From IMG/VR virus record IMGVR_UViG_3300005805_000086, positions 1,547-65,546 of that record: a stretch of DNA of 64,000 bases; one strand, written 5' to 3'. This DNA comes from a virus. Lineage: Duplodnaviria > Caudoviricetes. Under the pieces are notes generated by a model. It worked only from the letters and a program-made list of their open reading frames with translations, did not search any database and was not told the DNA's origin. The position numbers and the translations under genes are program-made. Of this stretch, positions 1 to 36,097 are shown piece by piece (the stretch's first letter is position 1; each line of letters opens with the position of its first letter).

Positions 1-3000
1 GCAATTGATTTTTTACAATCAGCAAGCATCTCCATAAGTTCAAATGGGGTTCCAACTATTACCTTTTCTCCGCACCCACTGTTTGTTAACTATTCTGAAA
101 GTGACCGCAATTGGGGAAGTGTTGAAGCACCATCGGTAGATGAAATACGTGATGTTGTCTCGTATTTATTGCCATATATTTATGACAGTGCGGGCACGAC
201 TTCTGATCCTTTTGCGGATATATTAGAGATTCGTGAAAATAGAGAAGAACTATGGGCTGAAAATCTTTGGGATATTCTTTATGGTGAAAACCGCATTGGT
301 CCATCATTTGAAGTTTCTGAAGCAGCTAGGAAAGATGCAGAAAAAGGAAATAGTCCACTAGGAGAACTGTTAAGGGCACTTAAGATATCACGAAAAATAA
401 ATGAACCACGTACGGTTATTGATATTATGCTTGAATCCGTATTTAACCCAATTGAACTTGGTGTACATGATGCTACTGAACACCTTTCAACCGGACGCGG
501 ATTCGATAGGCATGGAGAATGGGCTGCATTACTGATAGCTTCCGCAGAAGATGCTGTCAGCGCTGATGATTGGGTGGAAACTGATGATCAACTCAGATCG
601 CTTTTAACTAACTTATTTTCCACTTTTGGCGGAATGCAAATTCTACTGCAACAGATAGAAACAGCAATTCAGAAAGAAAAAGCTAACGGCATTAATGATT
701 CTGACCGAAAGTCCTCAATTCAATTATCAGATCTCAAAGCTCTTGTCGTAGAAATTCTAAGTAGAAGTAACGAGTCAAAAATAGCAAAGGCGCTCAAGGA
801 TCGTGGACTTTTTTCCCCAATCGAGTTGTTTGATTTGCGCGACGAAGATGGACGACCAATTAATGGCAGCAAGTCTACGACTAGAGAAAACTTTAGAATA
901 AATGATGCTTCAAATAGACTTCTAAATGCCACTGCGGATGAATCAGGTGCAAGTCCGGTACATGGATCTAAGTCACGCACGGATAGGTATCGACTCGTAG
1001 GTCGAGAAGCAGAAGAAATATATGATGATCTCGAACTTACTACTGAGGAAAAAGTAGCTATTCGGCGAGCCCTGTCTGATGACCTATCCCACATACAAGC
1101 GTTGTACGATATGGTAAAAAGTGGACAGATACCAGAGTATGTACACCCAGGACTAACACGGAAACAAGTAATTGATATCCTCGAATCAATTGAACTATCC
1201 GTCTCATCTAATGGCGTTCCAGTCATAACTTTTATGGGGATGCCATACTTGCAAGATCTTCTTCCAAAAGATAGAAATTGGTCTACGGTAGAGGCGCCAT
1301 CTGTTGCAGAACTAGACAAAATCGGTGAACGGCTCGAAAATAATTTTGGCTCGAATTGGTCTGAAGAAGAAGAAGAGGCGCAGCTATTGGCTCTTCAAAT
1401 CTCAAGAATGATTATTGGGGGTGAAGATACTGGTAGCAAGCTAATACAAGAGAGATTATCTAATTTTATTGATAGTTTGAGATCGGCAACCCCTGATGCG
1501 GATATACGAAAGTTCTGGTTGGAGTTACTTAATGATTTGCCAGTTAATAATTTATCTGATGAAGAAAATCGTAAATTTATTGAGAAATTATTTGGTTTAA
1601 GTGCTGAAGGGCAGGGCCGACCACGATCATTTCCCGAAGTCATTATAAGAGAAATATTTGGGGTTTTATCTACGTCGCAGAGTCATGATCATGGAGAGCA
1701 CGCAGTAACTGGTCGTGGTTTTGACCGTCACGGGGAATGGGCCACATTTCTTTTTGCACTTAGTGTAGCGGATGGCCAGGTGCGGGATGTCGCTGCAGAA
1801 TTGGGTATTGAAGATGAAAGGGTAATCGACTTTGCTCGAAAAAATATTATTGCACATCTTCTTAATATTGGTTCAGAACAAATATTCTACTTTCAACAAC
1901 AAACTCACAGAGAGGGCCTACGACCACTCTTTAATAGACTCTACCCAGATCGCCAGATTCTTCCTGCAGCTATCGACATTGAAAAAATTATTACTGAAGG
2001 AATTGTCGATAATCTTATTCCTGAACGTACGCTTGCGACAAATGAAGTAAATATCAAACGGGCAGTCGGTCTTTTAATGAATGCAATTTATGCCAATAAG
2101 GTCGTAGACTATATGCCACCTGAAATGATGACCGACCTACTACGGGAAATGCTTGGTGATAGAGAGTTTATAGATAATATTTTGCCCCTATTGGCAAAAG
2201 AGCAAACAGGACTTATATCACCCCTGGAAATACAAGATGTTTTTAGTGGAATAAACTCAATAGTTACGAGAATAACGCGCTCTATAGTTAAGGACAAGAA
2301 GCCGGATGTTCTAAAAAACAAAGAAACGGCCATATTGTTTGAGGGAATAGGAACTGAAACATCGCAATATAATATTGATGGTAGGAGTATTGCAGATTCT
2401 AGGTTGAGTGCTGATGAGATAATTCAGCTACTTGATCCACGTAATGAAAATGGGGTTCCATTAAACGGTAGCAAATCATCCACAAAGATTAGTAAGCCAA
2501 TAAACGAAATGAATTTGGATGATATCAATGCAGTAGTAGAAGAAACACAACTGCATCACCTTCCAGATGCCGATGGGATAGACCCAAATAGAAAGAAAAT
2601 TGGGAGGAAGCTCATTGGTCTCATTGATGCTGATATCGCATCTTCAGGTGATCCAACCGAAGCACTCATCGAGAGAATGATAAATGAGCTTGGCTTAGAT
2701 CCACAAAATGTACAAATAGCCAGAGACCAACTTGATAGTGCGATTAATGCGATTACGCAAATTCTAAACAATGAATCAGGGCTCAAATTTCATGTAAGCA
2801 TGCCAGAAGAAACGGTACGCATGATATTGCAGTCATTCTCGGTTGGTGTAGCATCAGACGGATTGCCATATATAGTATTTGCCCCCGACCCACGCGTATC
2901 TAGTGTTATACCCGATGAACGAAATTGGCGCAATGTCGAAATACCATCCATTGATCGAATGATGGAATTTTTTGAGTTCATAAAGAGTGGGCGCGAGTCG

Positions 3001-14368: not shown

Positions 14369-14444
14369 TGGCTGGCGAGGTAGGGCTCGAACCTACGACA
14401 AGCGGATTAACAGTCCGCTGCTCTGCCAACTGAGCTACTCGCCA
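14369..14444 (-). tRNA. tRNA-Asn (GTT), CCA encoded
   Basis: Acceptor stem TGGCGAG/CTCGCCA, discriminator G then CCA; anticodon arm GCGGA-CT GTT AA-TCCGC; T-loop GGTTCGAGCC. Confidence 0.97.
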
Positions 14445-16899: not shown

Positions 16900-16972
16900 T
16901 AAGCCAGGTGGGAATTGAACCCACGACCTGCACCTTATAAGAGTGCCACTCTAACCACTGAGTTACTGGCTT
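16900..16972 (-). tRNA. tRNA-Ile (TAT anticodon), no encoded CCA
   Basis: Acceptor stem AAGCCAG/CTGGCTT, discriminator A; D arm ACTC/GAGT; anticodon arm GCACT-CT TAT AA-GGTGC (anticodon 16937-16939); T-loop GGTTCAATTCC. Confidence 0.92.
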
Positions 16973-17529: not shown

Positions 17530-17602
17530 TGGGCCCGGTGGGTATCGAACCCACGACCAAGGAATTATGAGTTCCCTGCTCTGACCACTGAGCTACAGGC
17601 CC
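17530..17602 (-). tRNA. tRNA with CAT anticodon, probably Ile2 (lysidine type), no encoded CCA
   Basis: Acceptor stem GGGCCTG/CGGGCCC, discriminator A. C4:G69 and C5:G68 (TilS determinants in E. coli) are present. No C1:A72 mismatch and no G29-G30-G31 run, so not an initiator. Confidence 0.9.
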
Positions 17603-23984: not shown

Positions 23985-24055
23985 AAGCCCGCCATTTCTG
24001 GCGGGCCATGCAATCGATCCCTCTCTCTGTAGGGATTATCGATATGGTGGAATTG

Positions 24056-24502
24056 TCAGAACGGTTCGTCGTCCTCTTCAACAACCTGACGTGCTGCCTG
24101 TCGTGGCGCAGCAGCCTTCTTGGCTGGCTGTCCGTCAGAACCGGACCGACGCTTACGTTCAAAGGACTCAATCGAACGAGTCTGCACGCCGATTGCGTCA
24201 GCAACAAGCTCGATGATGGAGCGGTTCTTGCCAGTCTCTTTGTCTTCCCATGAGCGCTGCTCGAGTCGTCCGACGACAATCACACCAACACCCTTTTCGA
24301 GAACATTGGCAGAATCATCGGCAAGGTATCGCCAGGAAACAACATTGATGTAGGAGACTTTCTCCTGCTTTTCTCCGGAACCATCAGTCCAGTAGTGGTT
24401 AACGGCTACCGAAAATGCAAGGCGAGGCTTGCCGTCAGCAGTGAATGTCAGCTTTGGGTCATCGGTCACATTGCCGATGATCGTCGCGGGTGCTTGACTC
24501 AT
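24056..24502 (-). CDS. ssb: Single-stranded DNA-binding protein (actinobacterial type)
   Basis: TIIGNVTDDPKLTFT, GRLEQRSWE, acidic C-terminal EEDDEPF. Confidence 0.95.
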   Translation of the reverse strand: MSQAPATIIGNVTDDPKLTFTADGKPRLAFSVAVNHYWTDGSGEKQEKVSYINVVSWRYLADDSANVLEKGVGVIVVGRLEQRSWEDKETGKNRSIIELVADAIGVQTRSIESFERKRRSGSDGQPAKKAAAPRQAARQVVEEDDEPF

Positions 24503-24689
24503 TTATTTCTCTTTCTGTGTTTTGGGGCACGCCCCAATCGGTTATTCGGAACACTACATGTCCACCGGATGCGGTGCAAGCCATGCCAGACAATATTCAA
24601 AAAATAATAAATTACTATACTAATACTCAATATAGGCTAGAAGTTTTTCTACGACTTGAGTTTTTCCTCAGAGCTGCTATGGTGAGATT

Positions 24690-24947
24690 ATGACAAAAAA
24701 TTATGATGCAATTCTCGCCCTATCAGACAGCCTTGCTGATGCGCTATATGCCTATGCAACTTTTGATTTGGATGATTTGACCGATGAAGAACAGGAGGCG
24801 CAGCGCGATACATGCCGCGATATTGCTGACTTCATTACATTCTGTATGGACATCGATGCCAGTCTGGGTGAAGATCAGAAGTCATTTACTGCAACTGGAA
24901 AATTCAGCAATCCAGTAGACATGATAAAGAAATTTTTGGAAGCATAA
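24690..24947 (+). CDS. Acidic hypothetical protein
   Basis: 85-aa ORF divergent from ssb. Confidence 0.7.
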   Translation: MTKNYDAILALSDSLADALYAYATFDLDDLTDEEQEAQRDTCRDIADFITFCMDIDASLGEDQKSFTATGKFSNPVDMIKKFLEA

Positions 24948-24992
24948 CACCTGCTAGTAACGCATTTTAATGATTTTTTAGCCGTCAAGTGG

Positions 24993-25020
24993 TTGCATAA
25001 CTGTAATCAAATGGTAATAT
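24993..25020 (+). promoter_or_regulatory. Putative promoter for the transglycosylase operon
   Basis: -35 TTGCAT (24993-24998), 16-nt spacer, extended -10 TGGTAATAT (25012-25020). Confidence 0.5.
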
Positions 25021-25026
25021 TTGGAA

Positions 25027-25097
25027 GGTAACGGGGAAGCCCGTACATACGGAGGCCTTGCAAGTCTCCAGCCGTATCCGCCGAACACTGGAGACAC
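25027..25097 (+). ncRNA. Candidate cis-regulatory (riboswitch-like) 5' leader
   Basis: Hairpin ACGGG/CCCGT (25031-25044); ATACGG (25047-52) / CCGTAT (25072-77); GTCTCCAG (25064-71) / CTGGAGAC (25088-95), which covers the SD; alternative GGAGGC (25051-56) / GTCTCC (25064-69). Confidence 0.45.
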
Positions 25098-25640
25098 ATG
25101 AAACATCCGTTAAGGTCACTTTTAGCCATTCCCATAATCACACTAGGCATCGCAGTCGGTGTCAGCGCACAGGGAAGGGAGGAAGTCCAAACGGAGCCAA
25201 CAACGACAACAACTATCGCCCCTGCCGTCACTACAACGACAGCGCCGACAACTGTTGTCCCAGTCACCACAACGACTGTCATGACGCTCCCTGAAGGATT
25301 CTCCCTTCCAACGCTTCCGCCTGATGTTCCTTGCCAAGAGTGGACGCAGGTCGCATTGGATGCAGGATGGCCCTGGGAACTCCTTCCTGAGCTGCTTCGC
25401 GAAGTTTGGTCAGAATCACGTTGCCAGAACGTAATTCAGGGTCACCCCCAGTGGAATGGCCATGACCGTGGCCCTCTACAGATTAATCAAGTGTGGCTTG
25501 ATGACATTGAGGCGAAGTATGGACATTGGGAAGTCATAAATGATCCCCGCTACAACTTTGCTTGGGCATGGGAAATGTACAGATGGTATGACGACCATAA
25601 GGGATGTGGATTTATTCCTTGGTCGCGTCCCTGTAAATAG
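25098..25640 (+). CDS. Secreted lytic transglycosylase (SLT/lysozyme-like) 1
   Basis: Signal peptide, Thr/Pro linker, WSESRC (catalytic Glu), GPLQIN, DPRYN..AW.MY, PW. Confidence 0.85.
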   Translation: MKHPLRSLLAIPIITLGIAVGVSAQGREEVQTEPTTTTTIAPAVTTTTAPTTVVPVTTTTVMTLPEGFSLPTLPPDVPCQEWTQVALDAGWPWELLPELLREVWSESRCQNVIQGHPQWNGHDRGPLQINQVWLDDIEAKYGHWEVINDPRYNFAWAWEMYRWYDDHKGCGFIPWSRPCK

Positions 25641-25655
25641 AAAGAGGATTTAATA

Positions 25656-26210
25656 ATGTATAAAAATAAAATAAGTTCATTATCAAAACGATTGTCAATA
25701 ATTTGTGGCACTTCGGCACTATTGGTCATGGGGGTTATTGCCTGCGGTGGAGATGATCATTCATCTGAAATTTCAGACAAGAACAATGTTTCAATCCCAA
25801 CCACAGTGGCAGCAACTACCACTGTCCTCCCATTGACCACGGTTGCTACAACGACTACAACAACTATCCCAGATTTAAGTGGAGTTGATTTTGTTGAATT
25901 AGCACGATTCGTCTATGGAAAATGTGGAGAATGGCACGATGTGGCAATTAATGTTGGCTGGCCGGAGGAAGAATGGGAATTTTTACGTGAAGTTATTTGG
26001 CGTGAATCACGTTGCAAGCCAGATGCTTGGAATGGAGCTGATGCTGGACTAACGCAGATCAACCAAGTCCATACTGAATGGTTGTCGCAGATGGGTCTTT
26101 CTCATCCCGACGACATGTTTAATCCAGCAAATAATCTATATTTTGCCTATCGACTTTGGGAAACATCTGGATGGAAGCCATGGCGATTCAGTGGACCAAT
26201 CCCCGAGTGA
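25656..26210 (+). CDS. Lipoprotein lytic transglycosylase 2
   Basis: Lipobox-like VIA-C, Thr-rich linker, WRESRC, GLTQIN, FNPANNL, WKPW. Confidence 0.85.
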   Translation: MYKNKISSLSKRLSIICGTSALLVMGVIACGGDDHSSEISDKNNVSIPTTVAATTTVLPLTTVATTTTTTIPDLSGVDFVELARFVYGKCGEWHDVAINVGWPEEEWEFLREVIWRESRCKPDAWNGADAGLTQINQVHTEWLSQMGLSHPDDMFNPANNLYFAYRLWETSGWKPWRFSGPIPE

Positions 26211-26259
26211 AATTAGCGATTGTTGTAATCATGGAAGTGCATTGAAGGAGGAATCATAA

Positions 26260-26790
26260 ATGACCAGGTCGGAAAAAATAGCATCTATAGTCGTTGCAAT
26301 TATTTTGGCAACATCCATAATTATTGGGTTGACGTTTGGCAACGCAAAGGGCATAGTCGTGCAAAAATCAGAGAAGCCAAGTGTTAATTCCACCGTGCCG
26401 ATTGACCTCTCTGGAGTTGACTGGATAGGCCTAGCGCGACTTGTCTACGGCAGATGCGGTGAGTGGCATGACCTTGCCATGTCTGTTGGCTGGACTGAGG
26501 CTCAATGGCCCAAGTTGAGTTATGTTATTTATCGTGAGAGCCGTTGCAATATCGGCACCATCAATAAGAGTGACCCCAATGGCGGGAGTCGTGGACTCAT
26601 GCAGATTAATGGATACTGGTGCCGAAAGAATAAGTACAACCCAAGCGGTTGGCTGCAGGCACAGGGAACACTGAATACTTGTGATGACTTATTTAATCCC
26701 GAGGTTAATCTCCGTTCCGGATTAGCCATATGGAACTACAGTCAACAGCGCAATAAGTGTGGCTGGAGGCCATGGGCCACGAGGTGCTAG
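26260..26790 (+). CDS. Membrane-anchored/secreted lytic transglycosylase 3
   Basis: N-terminal hydrophobic helix, YRESRC, GLMQIN, LFNPEVNL, WRPW. Confidence 0.88.
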   Translation: MTRSEKIASIVVAIILATSIIIGLTFGNAKGIVVQKSEKPSVNSTVPIDLSGVDWIGLARLVYGRCGEWHDLAMSVGWTEAQWPKLSYVIYRESRCNIGTINKSDPNGGSRGLMQINGYWCRKNKYNPSGWLQAQGTLNTCDDLFNPEVNLRSGLAIWNYSQQRNKCGWRPWATRC

Positions 26791-26881: not shown

Positions 26882-27148
26882 ATGCCGATTCAAGTACCTC
26901 GCTCAATCGAAGTCTGCGGAGTGAAGGTTGAATCGTTGGAGCAAGCAAGAAAAGCCATAATAGATGCATATGAGGCAGTCATTGGTAAGCCCCTTGGGTC
27001 TATGGAGCCATGCGAGTATTCCAGCGTAATCAAAGAATTAGATACAATCGGATTTTTCGCATTGCGTGGTGCTGCGACCTATCTTTCTAAGCGCATCGGT
27101 GTTTCTAAAGTTACTGTCTATAACGTTATTAAAAAAGACAGGCAATAA
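26882..27148 (+). CDS. HTH regulator resembling the C-terminal HTH_22 domain of YheO/DauR
   Basis: VIKELDTIGFFALRGAATYLSKRIGVSKVTVYNVI. Confidence 0.65.
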   Translation: MPIQVPRSIEVCGVKVESLEQARKAIIDAYEAVIGKPLGSMEPCEYSSVIKELDTIGFFALRGAATYLSKRIGVSKVTVYNVIKKDRQ

Positions 27149-28584: not shown

Positions 28585-29022
28585 ATGAATTTTGAAGAAG
28601 ACGATGAGAATGAGTTTTCTCGAGCTGACCTACTCAATTTTTTGGGTGAGTTCATAAGTCAGAATCGAGATGCCGATTTACTTTATCGGTCATCTCTTTG
28701 CGGAATCCTTGTTGGACGCATTTATGAAGAGTTCGGACAAGAGGGGCTGTGTGAGCTAATGATGCAAATAGATATCCGTGGTGGCTGGATATCTGACATC
28801 ATATTCGAGTCATCGGACTTTAATAATGCGCTCTTCAAGCGACATGGCATATATGACGACGACATTGTAATGAAAGCACGAAGCGCATCGACAATGAATG
28901 AAATGAATAAAAAAATTTGGCGCCTGAGAAGGAAGTACGCAAATATCATTGCCGATGAGATTATTAATGGCGGAGACCCCGTAGCTCTGGATGCCGAAAA
29001 GGAGACTGGAGAGGGGAAGTAG
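28585..29022 (+). CDS. Hypothetical protein
   Basis: ATG 28585; acidic helical ORF. Confidence 0.7.
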   Translation: MNFEEDDENEFSRADLLNFLGEFISQNRDADLLYRSSLCGILVGRIYEEFGQEGLCELMMQIDIRGGWISDIIFESSDFNNALFKRHGIYDDDIVMKARSASTMNEMNKKIWRLRRKYANIIADEIINGGDPVALDAEKETGEGK

Positions 29023-29282
29023 TGTCTCGATTTCTTGGGAGAATCGTAAAAATCTGCCCCCCATTTAGGGGAACGCAAGAGCAGATAATGAAGAACTACG
29101 ACACTCATACTTGGCGCGTCGTGGATATGGATCTGAGATTTTCGGTTCGTGGCATAGGAACATTTGTTGAATGTGAGGAATGCCAAATTATTGCAGATAC
29201 CGAATACGCAAAATATGAATGCGGTAAAGCTCCCGAGGGAATAATCTACGATGACTATATGCGTAGTTTGAATGGGCGCTAG
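29022..29282 (+). CDS. Hypothetical protein (H..CxxC..C motif)
   Basis: ORF coupled to the upstream stop; start uncertain. Confidence 0.55.
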   Translation: MSRFLGRIVKICPPFRGTQEQIMKNYDTHTWRVVDMDLRFSVRGIGTFVECEECQIIADTEYAKYECGKAPEGIIYDDYMRSLNGR

Positions 29283-29485
29283 TTATTTCTTAAAAGTTGC
29301 CTCATGAGCTCAATTTCATTTACTTGAGCCTGAATTATCGAGTAGGCAATTGACTCAACGTCATGATGATTGACGGTGCTAAGCATGTTTTTACACATCC
29401 TTACTGCCATTTCATGATGTTTGATCATCTCATTCAAAAAATCAATTTCATCGGATTTGAGTTTGTGATCTGATCTACTACTCAC
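29279..29485 (-). CDS. DUF305 (ferritin-like, CopM-like) single-repeat protein
   Basis: DFLNEMIKHHEMAVRM...IAYSIIQAQVNEIELM. Confidence 0.8.
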   Translation of the reverse strand: MSSRSDHKLKSDEIDFLNEMIKHHEMAVRMCKNMLSTVNHHDVESIAYSIIQAQVNEIELMRQLLRNN

Positions 29486-29793
29486 GACTCATACCCCCAC
29501 ATTTGGGCAAGCGTTGGTCGAATTGGGGATATTCCTCGACGACGTTGCTCTGCTGCCAGTTGCCTACTTGTGAGACCAGCCCATACTCCATGCATGTCAA
29601 CCGTTGGGAACTGTAATGCATATTCAAGACATGGTTCCTTGACGGGACATTCAGCACATAATGCTCGTGCTGCAACTATATAAGTAATGTCTTTGTGTTC
29701 TTTGGGGAACATCATTGATGTTTTTCCTCTACATGAGGCATCGTCCATCCATGATGTTTCTGAATCATTCAGGTTTTGTTGTTCGTTTTGCAT
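29482..29793 (-). CDS. whiB: WhiB-family transcription factor (copy 3)
   Basis: WMDDASC...CAECPVKEPC...HGVWAG. Confidence 0.92.
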   Translation of the reverse strand: MQNEQQNLNDSETSWMDDASCRGKTSMMFPKEHKDITYIVAARALCAECPVKEPCLEYALQFPTVDMHGVWAGLTSRQLAAEQRRRGISPIRPTLAQMWGYES

Positions 29794-30431: not shown

Positions 30432-31640
30432 TCACTTAGCCTTTTTGGCTATCCTGCTCTTTGGTTTCGTGGTCGTGGCTTCTTCCTTGGCCGAAAATTC
30501 TTGACCACGGAACATTCCCCATCCACTGTAGATTGGCATGCACTCATAGGAAAACTTATGATCACCAGAGTCTTCGTACATGACAATGCCCAGGCCCTGC
30601 TGCCAATTTTCATGACGAGTTAATGGCCTCCCGTCCAAATCGACACCACCCTTAGTGCTGGGGATTGCACCATCAATTCGGGCAAGACAGCCCGGTGATG
30701 CGGCCATTATTGTTCGTGGACCATCCCAATCCTCACGTGTCTTGAATGCGCACTCAATGCGGTGAATGTGACCGTAGATAACGCTGCTCTTCTCGGCGTT
30801 CAAATACACGTGCGCCGTGGAGCCGGAACTCTTCACGCGGTCACCGTGAATAATGCGGAGTTTTTTATTCACCCAAATATCTGATGCCGGATAACCGGGA
30901 CGATACTCAACATCAAAGTCCTCCATTCTGCATAGGAATGGGACGGAAAGAACGGGCCATGATTCTGGCGTATTTCCACGGCGCAAACCATAAGCAGCCG
31001 TAGCATTTTGGACAATATACTTTGGCATGCGTTCTTCGTGATTGCCAGCAAGCCATACAATTTTTGCTGTCGGAGCAGCCGCACGCAACTCTGCACAAAA
31101 TAACGTTGCTCGGTCTATCGTTGCCTGCGTTGTTAGTGCGTAACTTGGATAGGTGACATACTTGCCCATTTCCGGAAGGTCCAGATTGTCGCCAACGCAA
31201 ACAACCAAATCAGGATTGAGATGCTCGATGACAGACAGTGCGACACCGATTGCTTGTTCATCGTGCGTCGGCTCCAGAACTCCTTCTTTATTTCGGAAGA
31301 AACCAAATTGAATATCTGGAACAACTATGCAAGTTTTGAATGAATCATTACGCTGTGGTTTGACTTTTGTTTTCGGAATATTGACGGATGGTCCTCGCTG
31401 AATGACTTGCCATTCTGGGCCAGATTCCCACTTGGGACTTATCTGAATTGCCGCAAGGTCAACTACTTGCGGGTCACCATTTTCATCCTTGAGCATCGAC
31501 TGGTAAATGGAGATCCTCTTAATCTCCCCAATTTCATTAATATCGATCTGCTTTGCCTCTAGCAAATCCGCTATGGCGCCAAGTGTTTTTGTACGCGATC
31601 CAGACGATGAGGCCTGAGATAGCTTGTCGGATAATGACAT
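30432..31640 (-). CDS. Calcineurin-like metallophosphoesterase
   Basis: PDIQ, GDNLD, GNHEE, IHG, GHIH motifs; TGATG coupling gives the start at 31640. Confidence 0.9.
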   Translation of the reverse strand: MSLSDKLSQASSSGSRTKTLGAIADLLEAKQIDINEIGEIKRISIYQSMLKDENGDPQVVDLAAIQISPKWESGPEWQVIQRGPSVNIPKTKVKPQRNDSFKTCIVVPDIQFGFFRNKEGVLEPTHDEQAIGVALSVIEHLNPDLVVCVGDNLDLPEMGKYVTYPSYALTTQATIDRATLFCAELRAAAPTAKIVWLAGNHEERMPKYIVQNATAAYGLRRGNTPESWPVLSVPFLCRMEDFDVEYRPGYPASDIWVNKKLRIIHGDRVKSSGSTAHVYLNAEKSSVIYGHIHRIECAFKTREDWDGPRTIMAASPGCLARIDGAIPSTKGGVDLDGRPLTRHENWQQGLGIVMYEDSGDHKFSYECMPIYSGWGMFRGQEFSAKEEATTTKPKSRIAKKAK

Positions 31641-31906
31641 CAGTTTTCTCCTATTGTTGGAATACCGCATTTGCATGGGTAAGCGCCAGTAATACACAGT
31701 CGTCCACGCGTCATTGCGTCGCGGGATACAGGTATTCCTTCCGTTCTTAATGTTTCACAAATTGCCCTTATCGATACCGTCGAGTCTGCAAGAGCTCCTA
31801 TAAGGGCAGTCTTATCGTCCGTCGAAAGGTCAGCGAGAATATGTGGTATTCGGCACTGATGCTTCTGTGAGCGCGAATTGATTGCATTTAATTTATCAGC
31901 TAACAT
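31640..31906 (-). CDS. Small HTH-like hypothetical protein
   Basis: SIRAICETLRTEGIPVSRDAM; terminal CKC. Confidence 0.6.
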   Translation of the reverse strand: MLADKLNAINSRSQKHQCRIPHILADLSTDDKTALIGALADSTVSIRAICETLRTEGIPVSRDAMTRGRLCITGAYPCKCGIPTIGEN

Positions 31907-31977: not shown

Positions 31978-32286
31978 ATGCAGATTAACGATTTGTTAAC
32001 TATGTGGTCCGATGATAGTAAATACACTACTAAACCAAATATATTGACTACCAATATGAGGGTGTTGATGCTGATTGCCCTCGATAATGAGATAACCCAA
32101 ATTGCAATGTCGGTTATTTTGCGAGTTTCCGAGACGGCAATAGAAAAAGCGGTTGCAAATTTGGAAAGTGACGGTATCGTCATCGTCGAAAGAAGTGGTC
32201 GAAGGAATCGCTACGTTGTTGATAACAACGTACTCAATAGCCACAGAGAAATCATCGCACTGAAGGAATTTATAGAAAATGTTTAA
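31978..32286 (+). CDS. MarR-like winged-helix protein
   Basis: TQIAMSVILRVSETAIEKAVANLESDGIVIVERSGRRNRY. Confidence 0.75.
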   Translation: MQINDLLTMWSDDSKYTTKPNILTTNMRVLMLIALDNEITQIAMSVILRVSETAIEKAVANLESDGIVIVERSGRRNRYVVDNNVLNSHREIIALKEFIENV

Positions 32287-35284: not shown

Positions 35285-36097
35285 TCAGAACATCTTGTCC
35301 CAAGTAATTGGACCAATGACGCCATCATCCTTCAGACCATTTGCCTTCTGCCAAGCCTTGACTTTGGCCTCTGTTGCTGGACCGAAGTCACCATCCGCTT
35401 TTGCGCCAACAATGGCCTGAACCAGCATTACCTCTGGGCCCTTTGAGCCCTTCTTGACGGGGGTTCCTGGGTACTTGAATTCCATTGGCCCAGCCTCAAT
35501 GGCACCACCAGAGGGCTTAATTGCTTCTGCTGGTGCTGCAACAGAACCATCGGGGGAAGCATCACCGAGGCAGTACTGCCAGTGCCAAGCTTCAAACTCC
35601 TTAGAGTTTTTATCGCCAGTCTGTAGGTAGAAACCCCACTTAGGGGCGTTGGCGCACATCCACTCGAAACAAGCCCCACCCATTGACTGCAATTTCCCGC
35701 CAGCCTCGTATCCAAGGTCGATGGCTAGACCCCAACCATGATTTGAGCCTTTGACGCCAGTGGGGTCTGGGGCTGCCGATGGCGCTTTGCCTGGCTTCAG
35801 ATACCAAGTCTTTCCCTCATACTGGCGTGTTACTTGTGGGCTACGACCCTGGTCTGTAGTAGTATACCGATCCATAAACATAGACAGCTGGCCTTCAAAC
35901 GAGCGATAGTCGCCAACATTGCGAAGCTTGTAGCCAGCCGCAAGTGCCGCATCGTACATTTTGTCAAATTGTGCAGCAACTGGGGCATACATCTGGCCAC
36001 CAGTCTTTACTTTTGCAAGCAAATTTGCTGGTAGCTGACCATTTTTGTGACCATTAAGGGCAGTTGGCTTTACGAGTTTAATGTATGGGTACGCCAT
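35285..36097 (-). CDS. Endolysin: M15 (VanY-like) Zn peptidase + peptidoglycan-binding domain
   Basis: YRS..Q, SNHGWGLAID, EAWH; C-terminal KKGSKGPEV...ADGDFGPATE..VK.WQ...GL.DDGVIGPITW. Confidence 0.92.
   Translation of the reverse strand: MAYPYIKLVKPTALNGHKNGQLPANLLAKVKTGGQMYAPVAAQFDKMYDAALAAGYKLRNVGDYRSFEGQLSMFMDRYTTTDQGRSPQVTRQYEGKTWYLKPGKAPSAAPDPTGVKGSNHGWGLAIDLGYEAGGKLQSMGGACFEWMCANAPKWGFYLQTGDKNSKEFEAWHWQYCLGDASPDGSVAAPAEAIKPSGGAIEAGPMEFKYPGTPVKKGSKGPEVMLVQAIVGAKADGDFGPATEAKVKAWQKANGLKDDGVIGPITWDKMF

Follow-up and report, generated by a model that had tools for sequence, protein, structure and literature searches.

The short leader that, in a freshwater phage, precedes an operon for exported transglycosylase-like proteins can fold into two mutually exclusive hairpins built around a single anti-SD strand, and these hairpins are conserved in homologous phages. 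The reading that we favour, with about even confidence, is that the leader is a translational attenuator that needs no ligand: folding alone, modelled as a kinetic passage between two states, would restrain and probably time the expression of the first transglycosylase gene. The leader (25027-25097) was studied within a stretch of 64,000 nucleotides (the window), which makes up most of a 65.5-kb IMG/VR virus record whose completeness is put at 44% by CheckV.

The window has a GC content of about 44% and includes phage tail-fibre and virion genes, a ribonucleotide reductase and a helicase. A megablast search against deposited phage genomes returned no match, and no protein relatives were confirmed in bacterial and archaeal genomes. 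At gathering scores, the Rfam 15 models found only three tRNA genes in the whole window, all on the minus strand (14372-14444, 16900-16972 and 17530-17602). The phage encodes a WhiB-family protein (29482-29793, minus strand; Pfam E 1.3e-14), so its host is probably an actinobacterium. The leader is followed by three tandem paralogous genes, all on the plus strand, for SLT-like exported proteins. The first (25098-25640) encodes a protein of 180 aa with a predicted cleavable signal peptide, a Thr-rich linker and a WSESRC...GPLQIN motif; this protein has no match of its own in a Pfam search and, at 37% identity (E 4e-12), is paralogous to the second. The second gene (25656-26210) matches Pfam SLT above the cut-off (PF01464, E 5.6e-09), and the third (26260-26790) gives SLT and SLT_3 matches just under the cut-offs (2.7e-04 and 3.9e-05, respectively). 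The name "transglycosylase operon", used in a first-pass annotation of this DNA, is thus a fair label. An HTH_22 gene lies downstream (26882-27148). Since a VanY-type endolysin with VanY and PG_binding_1 domains is encoded elsewhere (35285-36097, minus strand), the SLT-like trio is separate from the lysis gene.

The segments from which the first-pass annotation had assembled its switch all lie where it had placed them: GGAGGC at 25051-25056, GTCTCCAG at 25064-25071, CCGTAT at 25072-25077, CTGGAGAC at 25088-25095 and the ATG at 25098. In one conformation, state A, the anti-SD strand GUCUCCAG (25064-25071) forms eight Watson-Crick pairs with the SD strand CUGGAGAC (25088-25095), the 3' arm of a hairpin with a 16-nt loop (CCGUAUCCGCCGAACA, 25072-25087). 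The SD core, GGAG (25090-25093), is buried in this helix as had been proposed. In the other conformation, state B, the anti-SD strand is taken away from the SD: an upstream SD-like copy, GGAGGC (25051-25056), acts as an anti-anti-SD and pairs with GUCUCC (25064-25069), with one G·U and, in the window, a 7-nt loop (25057-25063). Both states draw on the same anti-SD strand and are mutually exclusive, again in agreement with the earlier proposal. Mutually exclusive helices that involve the SD are the feature by which a riboswitch-type expression platform is recognised; here they are conserved in 16 leaders. The MFE structure of an 84-nt RNA starting at 25027 is state A (-28 kcal/mol, z = -2.34). 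When the SD region was held fixed and the remaining leader was shuffled 5000 times with dinucleotides preserved, an SD helix of at least 8 bp arose in 49 shuffles, and in only 6 was it joined by a competitor of at least 6 bp for the same strand. The paired structures of the leader exceed chance. Among the 18 GGAG-led genes of the window, the one behind this leader has the most deeply buried SD (predicted unpaired probability, 0.00-0.001). Three other GGAG-led genes have predicted values below 0.02. Strongly buried GGAG sequences (unpaired probability 0.001-0.01, in helices of 5-7 bp) are predicted at the small genes 31640-31906 (minus strand), 29022-29282 (plus strand) and 31978-32286 (plus strand).

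A promoter had been judged plausible at 24993-25020, and it consists of a -35-like TTGCAT (24993-24998), a 16-nt spacer and the extended -10 TGGTAATAT (25012-25020), that is, TAATAT with a TGG extension. The match falls below the threshold of a consensus scan, where it is unlisted; nonetheless, the extended -10 is kept in all related leaders and leader types, at a fixed distance from the 5' hairpin, and a perfect TTGACA occupies the -35 position in several relatives (L004, L005, L016 and L022). Placed from this conserved extended -10, the transcription start would be at about 25027-25028. The promoter spacer (24999-25014, ACTGTAATCAAATGG) is, unlike the variable -35 region, more conserved among relatives than its role as a spacer requires, which may point to an operator that overlaps the promoter.

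A 5'-terminal hairpin (25028-25046; GUA-CGGG / GAAG loop / CCCG-UAC) is present in the MFE structure, and the ACGGG-GAAG-CCCGT element that had been said to come first is found within it at 25031-25044. Every leader type has such a hairpin equally far from the -10, with very different stems: ACGGG/CCCGU, GAUGGGG/CCCCAUC, GUGGCA/UGCCAC, GUGCCCAACC/GGUUGGGCAC and GGCCCUAC/GUAGGGCC. That its position is kept while lineages use entirely different stems argues that it is real and, since it begins at or within a few nucleotides of the presumed 5' end, it is most simply a protective stem-loop that probably stabilises the mRNA. The loop of this hairpin carries the motif C(C)UGCUAG or CCUGCUC in most relatives (L002, L004, L005, L010, L013 and L042), the window's loop being an exception. 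The same motif is found just past the stop codon of the upstream gene (24948-24962 in the window, CACCTGCTAGTAACG). Conservation of the loop on stems that vary may be the mark of a protein-binding hairpin. Two other kinds of leader element were considered and rejected. An upstream ORF or leader peptide would depend on the sole start-like codon, TTG at 25058, which lies 2 nt past GGAGG and is missing in relatives, and a frame ending at the TGA that overlaps the ATG lacks a start codon within the transcript. A terminator or transcription attenuator in the window's leader was dismissed because a U-tract follows neither hairpin.

The use of the first-gene protein as a query identified 32 viral and 70 metagenome loci, from which 53 distinct leaders were extracted. 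Sixteen distinct leaders make up the window's clade and share a common order: extended -10, 5' hairpin, GGAGRC, loop, GUCUCY, AG, (U)CCGUAUCCNCC..., C(U/A)GGAGAC, 2 nt, AUG. The upstream copy, the anti-SD strand and the SD strand are nearly invariant across these leaders; the neutral background is given by the fourfold-degenerate sites of the gene, of which, in 15 of these phages, only 5 out of 37 are invariant. The comparison supports purifying selection on all three strands in the approximately 16 homologous leaders. Ribosome binding would constrain the SD strand anyway, a point against the favoured reading. The anti-SD strand is invariant at 7 of 8 positions, the lone change being a C-to-U in L004 that keeps a G·U pair in both states. 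The upstream copy reads GGAGAC, GGGGAC or GGAGGC; four of its six positions are invariant, the other two each deviate in 2 sequences, and pairing survives in every variant. The loop of state B, 3 nt long in 14 leaders and 7 nt in two (the window and L075), varies at nearly every position (ACA, CAA, UGG, UGA, CGA, UAA, CUUGCAA, ACACCAA).

Three changes are found in the state-B stem: an A-to-G shared by the window and L075, an A-to-G shared by L006 and L017, and the C-to-U of L004. All three yield G·U on the sense strand and, together with the 3-to-7-nt change in the loop, point to an RNA hairpin rather than a DNA operator. Formal pair counts in the 16-leader clade revealed no double-sided compensatory change in either helix. 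The check for covariation that had been suggested for homologous leaders therefore turned up something else, namely G·U changes and conservation of the strands; by covariation in the strict sense, the helices are neither supported nor refuted within the clade. Since double-sided changes are absent, the case for two states is made up of conservation and the G·U changes. In L004, L006 and L017, pair 7 of state A is broken (CAGGAGAC) and state B is also weakened, through G·U, by two independent changes. For these three leaders the computed free energies are -4.5 to -6.7 kcal/mol (state A) and -5.3 to -6.1 kcal/mol (state B); the remaining leaders of the clade have values of about -12 and about -7 kcal/mol, respectively.

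An IMG/VR pattern search was anchored only on a CCGUAU-type loop and the SD. In the matches, the anti-SD was always accompanied by the competitor, or both were absent. No further leader variants emerged, and seven loci, in four sequence groups, were matched by chance, with no leader context around them. A covariance model of the element, run against related genomes, hit each of them a single time, at this operon and nowhere else. Neither switch strand is present in L026, L054 and L029 or in the L015 group, the closest outgroup, whose protein is 80% identical to the window's; the gene can therefore do without the switch.

The H-type pseudoknot that had been thought compatible with state A, formed by ATACGG and CCGTAT, did not withstand the comparison. 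It can form 6 bp in only 3 of the 16 leaders and 4 bp in 4 more; in the other 9, the pairing has been lost through one-sided changes on the 5' side, CCGUAU itself being invariant. The pairing was consequently dropped as a conserved pseudoknot and also as a helix extension. Pairing inside the state-A loop is not conserved either. The first 8 nt of this loop (CCGUAUCC) are invariant in the clade and include the start of a family-wide motif, UAUCCNCC (25075-25082); the sole conserved unpaired stretch of the leader is the loop of the OFF hairpin. In nearly every leader type of the gene family the UAUCCNCC core stands 8-13 nt ahead of the SD. Types without anti-SD or competitor (the L015 group, L026, L054 and L029) have it too, so the conserved loop is not confined to leaders with the switch. 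Elsewhere in the window the motif is not enriched, and neither the promoter nor the loop motif nor its complement has other copies above chance. A search of bacterial and archaeal genomes for the family-wide motif TATCCCCTATCAAGGAG gave 18 matches in unrelated taxa; since about 70 are expected by chance in 596 Gb (by rough arithmetic), the motif is not a host element. It may be conserved for a reason in cis, with its UCC weakly pairing the GGA of the SD or with a pyrimidine tract serving ribosome binding.

At predicted equilibrium, state A prevails. The isolated state-A hairpin has a free energy of -12.1 kcal/mol at 37 C, and the predicted ensemble share of state A at this temperature is at least 0.93 in 13 of the 16 leaders and at least 0.98 in 12. 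The two states are roughly balanced in L017, and L004 and L006 are predicted to be less lopsided than other leaders. For the window's leader the predicted share of state A is 0.993-1.000 between 10 and 37 C, with 1e-5 to 1e-8 for state B. An RNA thermometer was rejected on this account, as the SD helix does not melt in that range and the hairpin still stands at -12 kcal/mol at 37 C. State A is more stable than state B by 4-10 kcal/mol, so that state B can matter only kinetically and any ligand would, at equilibrium, have to make up this difference.

A different picture emerges when the chain is folded as it grows. State B is the MFE structure from nt 43 to nt 68; with nt 69 the SD strand is finished and state A takes over. 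Refolding from B to A meets a barrier of 10-13 kcal/mol for the window (10-37 C) and of 7-13 kcal/mol across the clade at 37 C; these are direct-path estimates from nearest-neighbour energies, and strand displacement may make real refolding much faster. With the usual pre-factors, a barrier of 7-13 kcal/mol would translate, as a rough estimate, into seconds to minutes. On such a time scale state B could persist long enough for ribosomes to load, and an initiating ribosome could in turn hold the SD off the anti-SD.

These data can be assembled into the following model. Transcription would start at about 25027 and the 5'-terminal hairpin would form first, probably protecting the message. Once both strands were synthesised, GGAGGC would pair with the anti-SD GUCUCC, and the true SD would be left free on the nascent RNA, allowing the first ribosomes to load. 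Completion of the SD strand would then favour the more stable GUCUCCAG/CUGGAGAC hairpin with its 16-nt loop, and the RNA would relax over a barrier of some 8-13 kcal/mol into the silent state A. Translation of each message would accordingly be brief or low-level. Both the effect on translation and the role of the competitor, as a kinetic trap rather than a mere setter of the equilibrium, are deduced from modelled folding. The first-pass annotation had envisaged a two-state translational switch responsive to a ligand or a protein. The two-state part is borne out by exclusive, conserved helices around one anti-SD strand, with conservation rather than covariation as its backing; the part concerned with ligand sensing is unsupported, as the leader offers no conserved pocket and the ON loop is variable.

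The conserved loop of state A falls outside what the kinetic attenuator model accounts for. A factor acting in trans, either a small RNA or a protein of the phage or its host, might recognise CCGUAUCCNCC in this loop and lock the SD shut or open it, the competitor hairpin being the alternative state; we consider this unlikely. Eight consecutive loop nucleotides are invariant in the clade, far beyond what is seen at neutral sites, and the UAUCCNCC core recurs at a similar distance from the SD in nearly all leader types. Protein-binding RNA hairpins typically combine a conserved loop with a conserved stem, a pattern that the state-A hairpin fits. However, no candidate binder was found, the window holds no complementary sequence or enrichment of the motif elsewhere, and the loop may be conserved for one of the cis reasons given above instead. 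It is more doubtful that the 16-nt loop (CCGUAUCCNCC...) and the three-strand platform together constitute a very small, undescribed sensor, either a mini-aptamer or a protein-binding hairpin, through which freshwater actinobacterial phages couple translation of exported transglycosylases to a cell-wall signal or to the progress of infection; in that case, the UAUCCNCC core of other leader types would be a common sensing element. A metabolite riboswitch, in which a small ligand related to the cell wall or to a second messenger shifts the leader between A and B, we consider quite improbable. In Actinobacteria, cell-wall hydrolase genes such as rpfA are under the control of ydaO/c-di-AMP riboswitches, and the present genes are also cell-wall hydrolases in a phage whose WhiB makes an actinobacterial host likely; moreover, the three-strand layout is that of translational riboswitch expression platforms and the 16-nt loop is conserved. 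Against this reading, the leader consists of simple hairpins, with no multi-helix junction and no conserved pocket-forming domain with covariation such as defines an aptamer. The loop of the ON hairpin is variable (3 or 7 nt), the 5' hairpin fully so, and the pseudoknot is unconserved. The loop motif is found also in leaders without the switch strands, and the 4-10 kcal/mol needed to favour state B would fall to the ligand. Rfam covariance models, including ydaO/yuaA (RF00379), gave nothing that overlaps 25027-25097, either at E up to 10 on 24000-26500 or at gathering scores on the whole window. The first-pass annotation, which could match the leader neither to the c-di-AMP consensus nor to another family, is thereby confirmed on this point; the ligand-responsive switch advanced alongside it is not, there being no aptamer-like pocket and no compensatory covariation.

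Two further readings do without a sensor. The leader could be a static attenuator in which the SD hairpin always keeps translation low, while the upstream GGAGRC serves otherwise, e.g. as a single-stranded, SD-like standby site for 30S subunits, its pairing with the anti-SD being incidental. The dominance of state A by 4-10 kcal/mol at predicted equilibrium agrees with this idea, as do the L085-type leaders, which bury the SD with no visible competitor; furthermore, GGAGRC is unpaired in state A and often looks like a good SD (AAGGAGAC, GAGGAGAC). It is difficult to see from this standpoint, however, why C6 of GGAGAC should be invariant, since pairing with 16S rRNA does not need it and its partner is G1 of GUCUCC, or why all variants of the upstream copy should keep pairing. 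State B is weaker in just the lineage in which state A is weaker, and in the IMG/VR matches bearing the CCGUAU-type loop and SD the anti-SD never appears without the competitor. On balance, a static attenuator seems a minority possibility, about as credible as the trans-acting factor. Alternatively, the three GGAGAC/GTCTCC copies could act at the DNA level, as operator half-sites through which a repressor blocks transcription just past the promoter. GGAGAC-N3-GTCTCC is indeed a perfect palindrome in most relatives and the HTH_22 gene (26882-27148) lies downstream; yet in the window and L075 the palindrome is spaced by 7 bp instead of 3, the half-site changes are all transitions that preserve G·U solely on the sense RNA strand, and the third copy is the SD itself. 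Such an operator is very improbable.

Orthologous genes are preceded by other leader types as well, and these were compared by hand, as a MAFFT alignment across types put the helices out of register. Two of them bury the SD with different letters. The L085 type does so with UUUUCCUU/AAGGAGAA, a helix of 8-9 bp with the loop AUCCCCUAUC, leaving the SD with a predicted unpaired probability of 0.01-0.08. This helix and that of the window differ on both sides at three positions with pairing retained; the difference perhaps reflects convergence and not inherited covariation, because intermediate lineages lack the helix. In leaders of this type (L085:685-723, L086:592-630, L087:1276-1314 and L106:1273-1311), a GC-rich 5' hairpin (GGCCCUAC/GUAGGGCU) runs straight into UUUUCCUU. 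The hairpin and the U-tract of UUUUCCUU resemble an intrinsic terminator right after the promoter, and the same U-tract is the anti-SD that pairs with AAGGAGAA, raising the possibility that the L085-type leader may combine transcription and translation attenuation. The L066 type has an SD helix of about 10 bp around GCCUCU/GGAGG. It represents a third, unrelated design (L066, L083, L092, L097, L100, L102 and L103) occupying approximately 70-140 nt before the start codon, with a long conserved upstream region, the SD-burying helix (GAGCCUCUG.../...CCGGAGGUUC) and a second CCUCU copy in the loop.

Restrained translation therefore recurs for these exported enzymes, whether by convergence or covariation. 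In freshwater phages, at least three unrelated SD-hiding designs precede orthologous genes for exported transglycosylases, which suggests that infection depends critically on how much of these enzymes is made, or when. If the kinetic two-state reading is true, the present leader would be a natural and very compact (70 nt, aptamer-free) case of translation control by folding order in a dsDNA phage. To our knowledge, the examples of such control described so far come mostly from RNA phages and from type I toxin mRNAs. The element could also be used as a simple module where expression is to be timed or kept low.

Four groups of known systems offer points of comparison. The ydaO/yuaA c-di-AMP riboswitch (RF00379) controls the same class of gene, for exported peptidoglycan hydrolases, in what is probably the same host group. 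With well over 100 nt, the ydaO aptamer is large and has a pseudo-two-fold architecture; the phage leader, in contrast, has 70 nt and two simple hairpins, and the region 24000-26500 has no Rfam match to it. A closer resemblance is found in translational riboswitch platforms such as those of thiM (TPP) and btuB, where three exclusive strands decide access to the SD (PMC2018614, PMC11162775). In the phage leader the aptamer domain is absent and the strand derived from it is replaced by a plain hairpin arm with a variable loop; its layout is that of a riboswitch expression platform minus the aptamer. Metastable hairpins formed during transcription are also known from the hok mRNA of plasmid R1. 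Type I toxin mRNAs, among them that of Helicobacter pylori aapA3 (PMC6733600), resemble the phage leader in that successive local hairpins made from copies of the SD and anti-SD control the time of translation through the folding pathway, with no ligand. The logic in aapA3 and hok is reversed, however: there, transient hairpins hide the SD and later processing activates the message, whereas here, according to prediction, the transient hairpin exposes the SD and the final one hides it.

The closest mechanistic precedent is the leader of the MS2 maturation gene. In that RNA a 5' hairpin is followed by an upstream complement that pairs with the SD at equilibrium, a metastable hairpin delays this pairing, and only nascent RNA is translated (PMC4615214). 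The two systems differ in that MS2 has an RNA genome and pairs its SD over a long distance within a cloverleaf, whereas here a dsDNA phage would use a local hairpin, known from predicted folds, in an mRNA leader of 70 nt; there is no sequence similarity, and the competitor strand of the phage leader is a literal copy of the SD. Two features of the MS2 mechanism are nevertheless predicted here. The SD is paired upstream at equilibrium (share of at least 0.93 in 13 of 16 leaders, with the SD unpaired at a probability of about 0), and a conserved metastable hairpin forms first, state B being the MFE structure from nt 43 to nt 68. The order of the parts is the same in the two leaders, and in both a small metastable hairpin that uses part of the SD complement would form ahead of the final structure, with no ligand involved.
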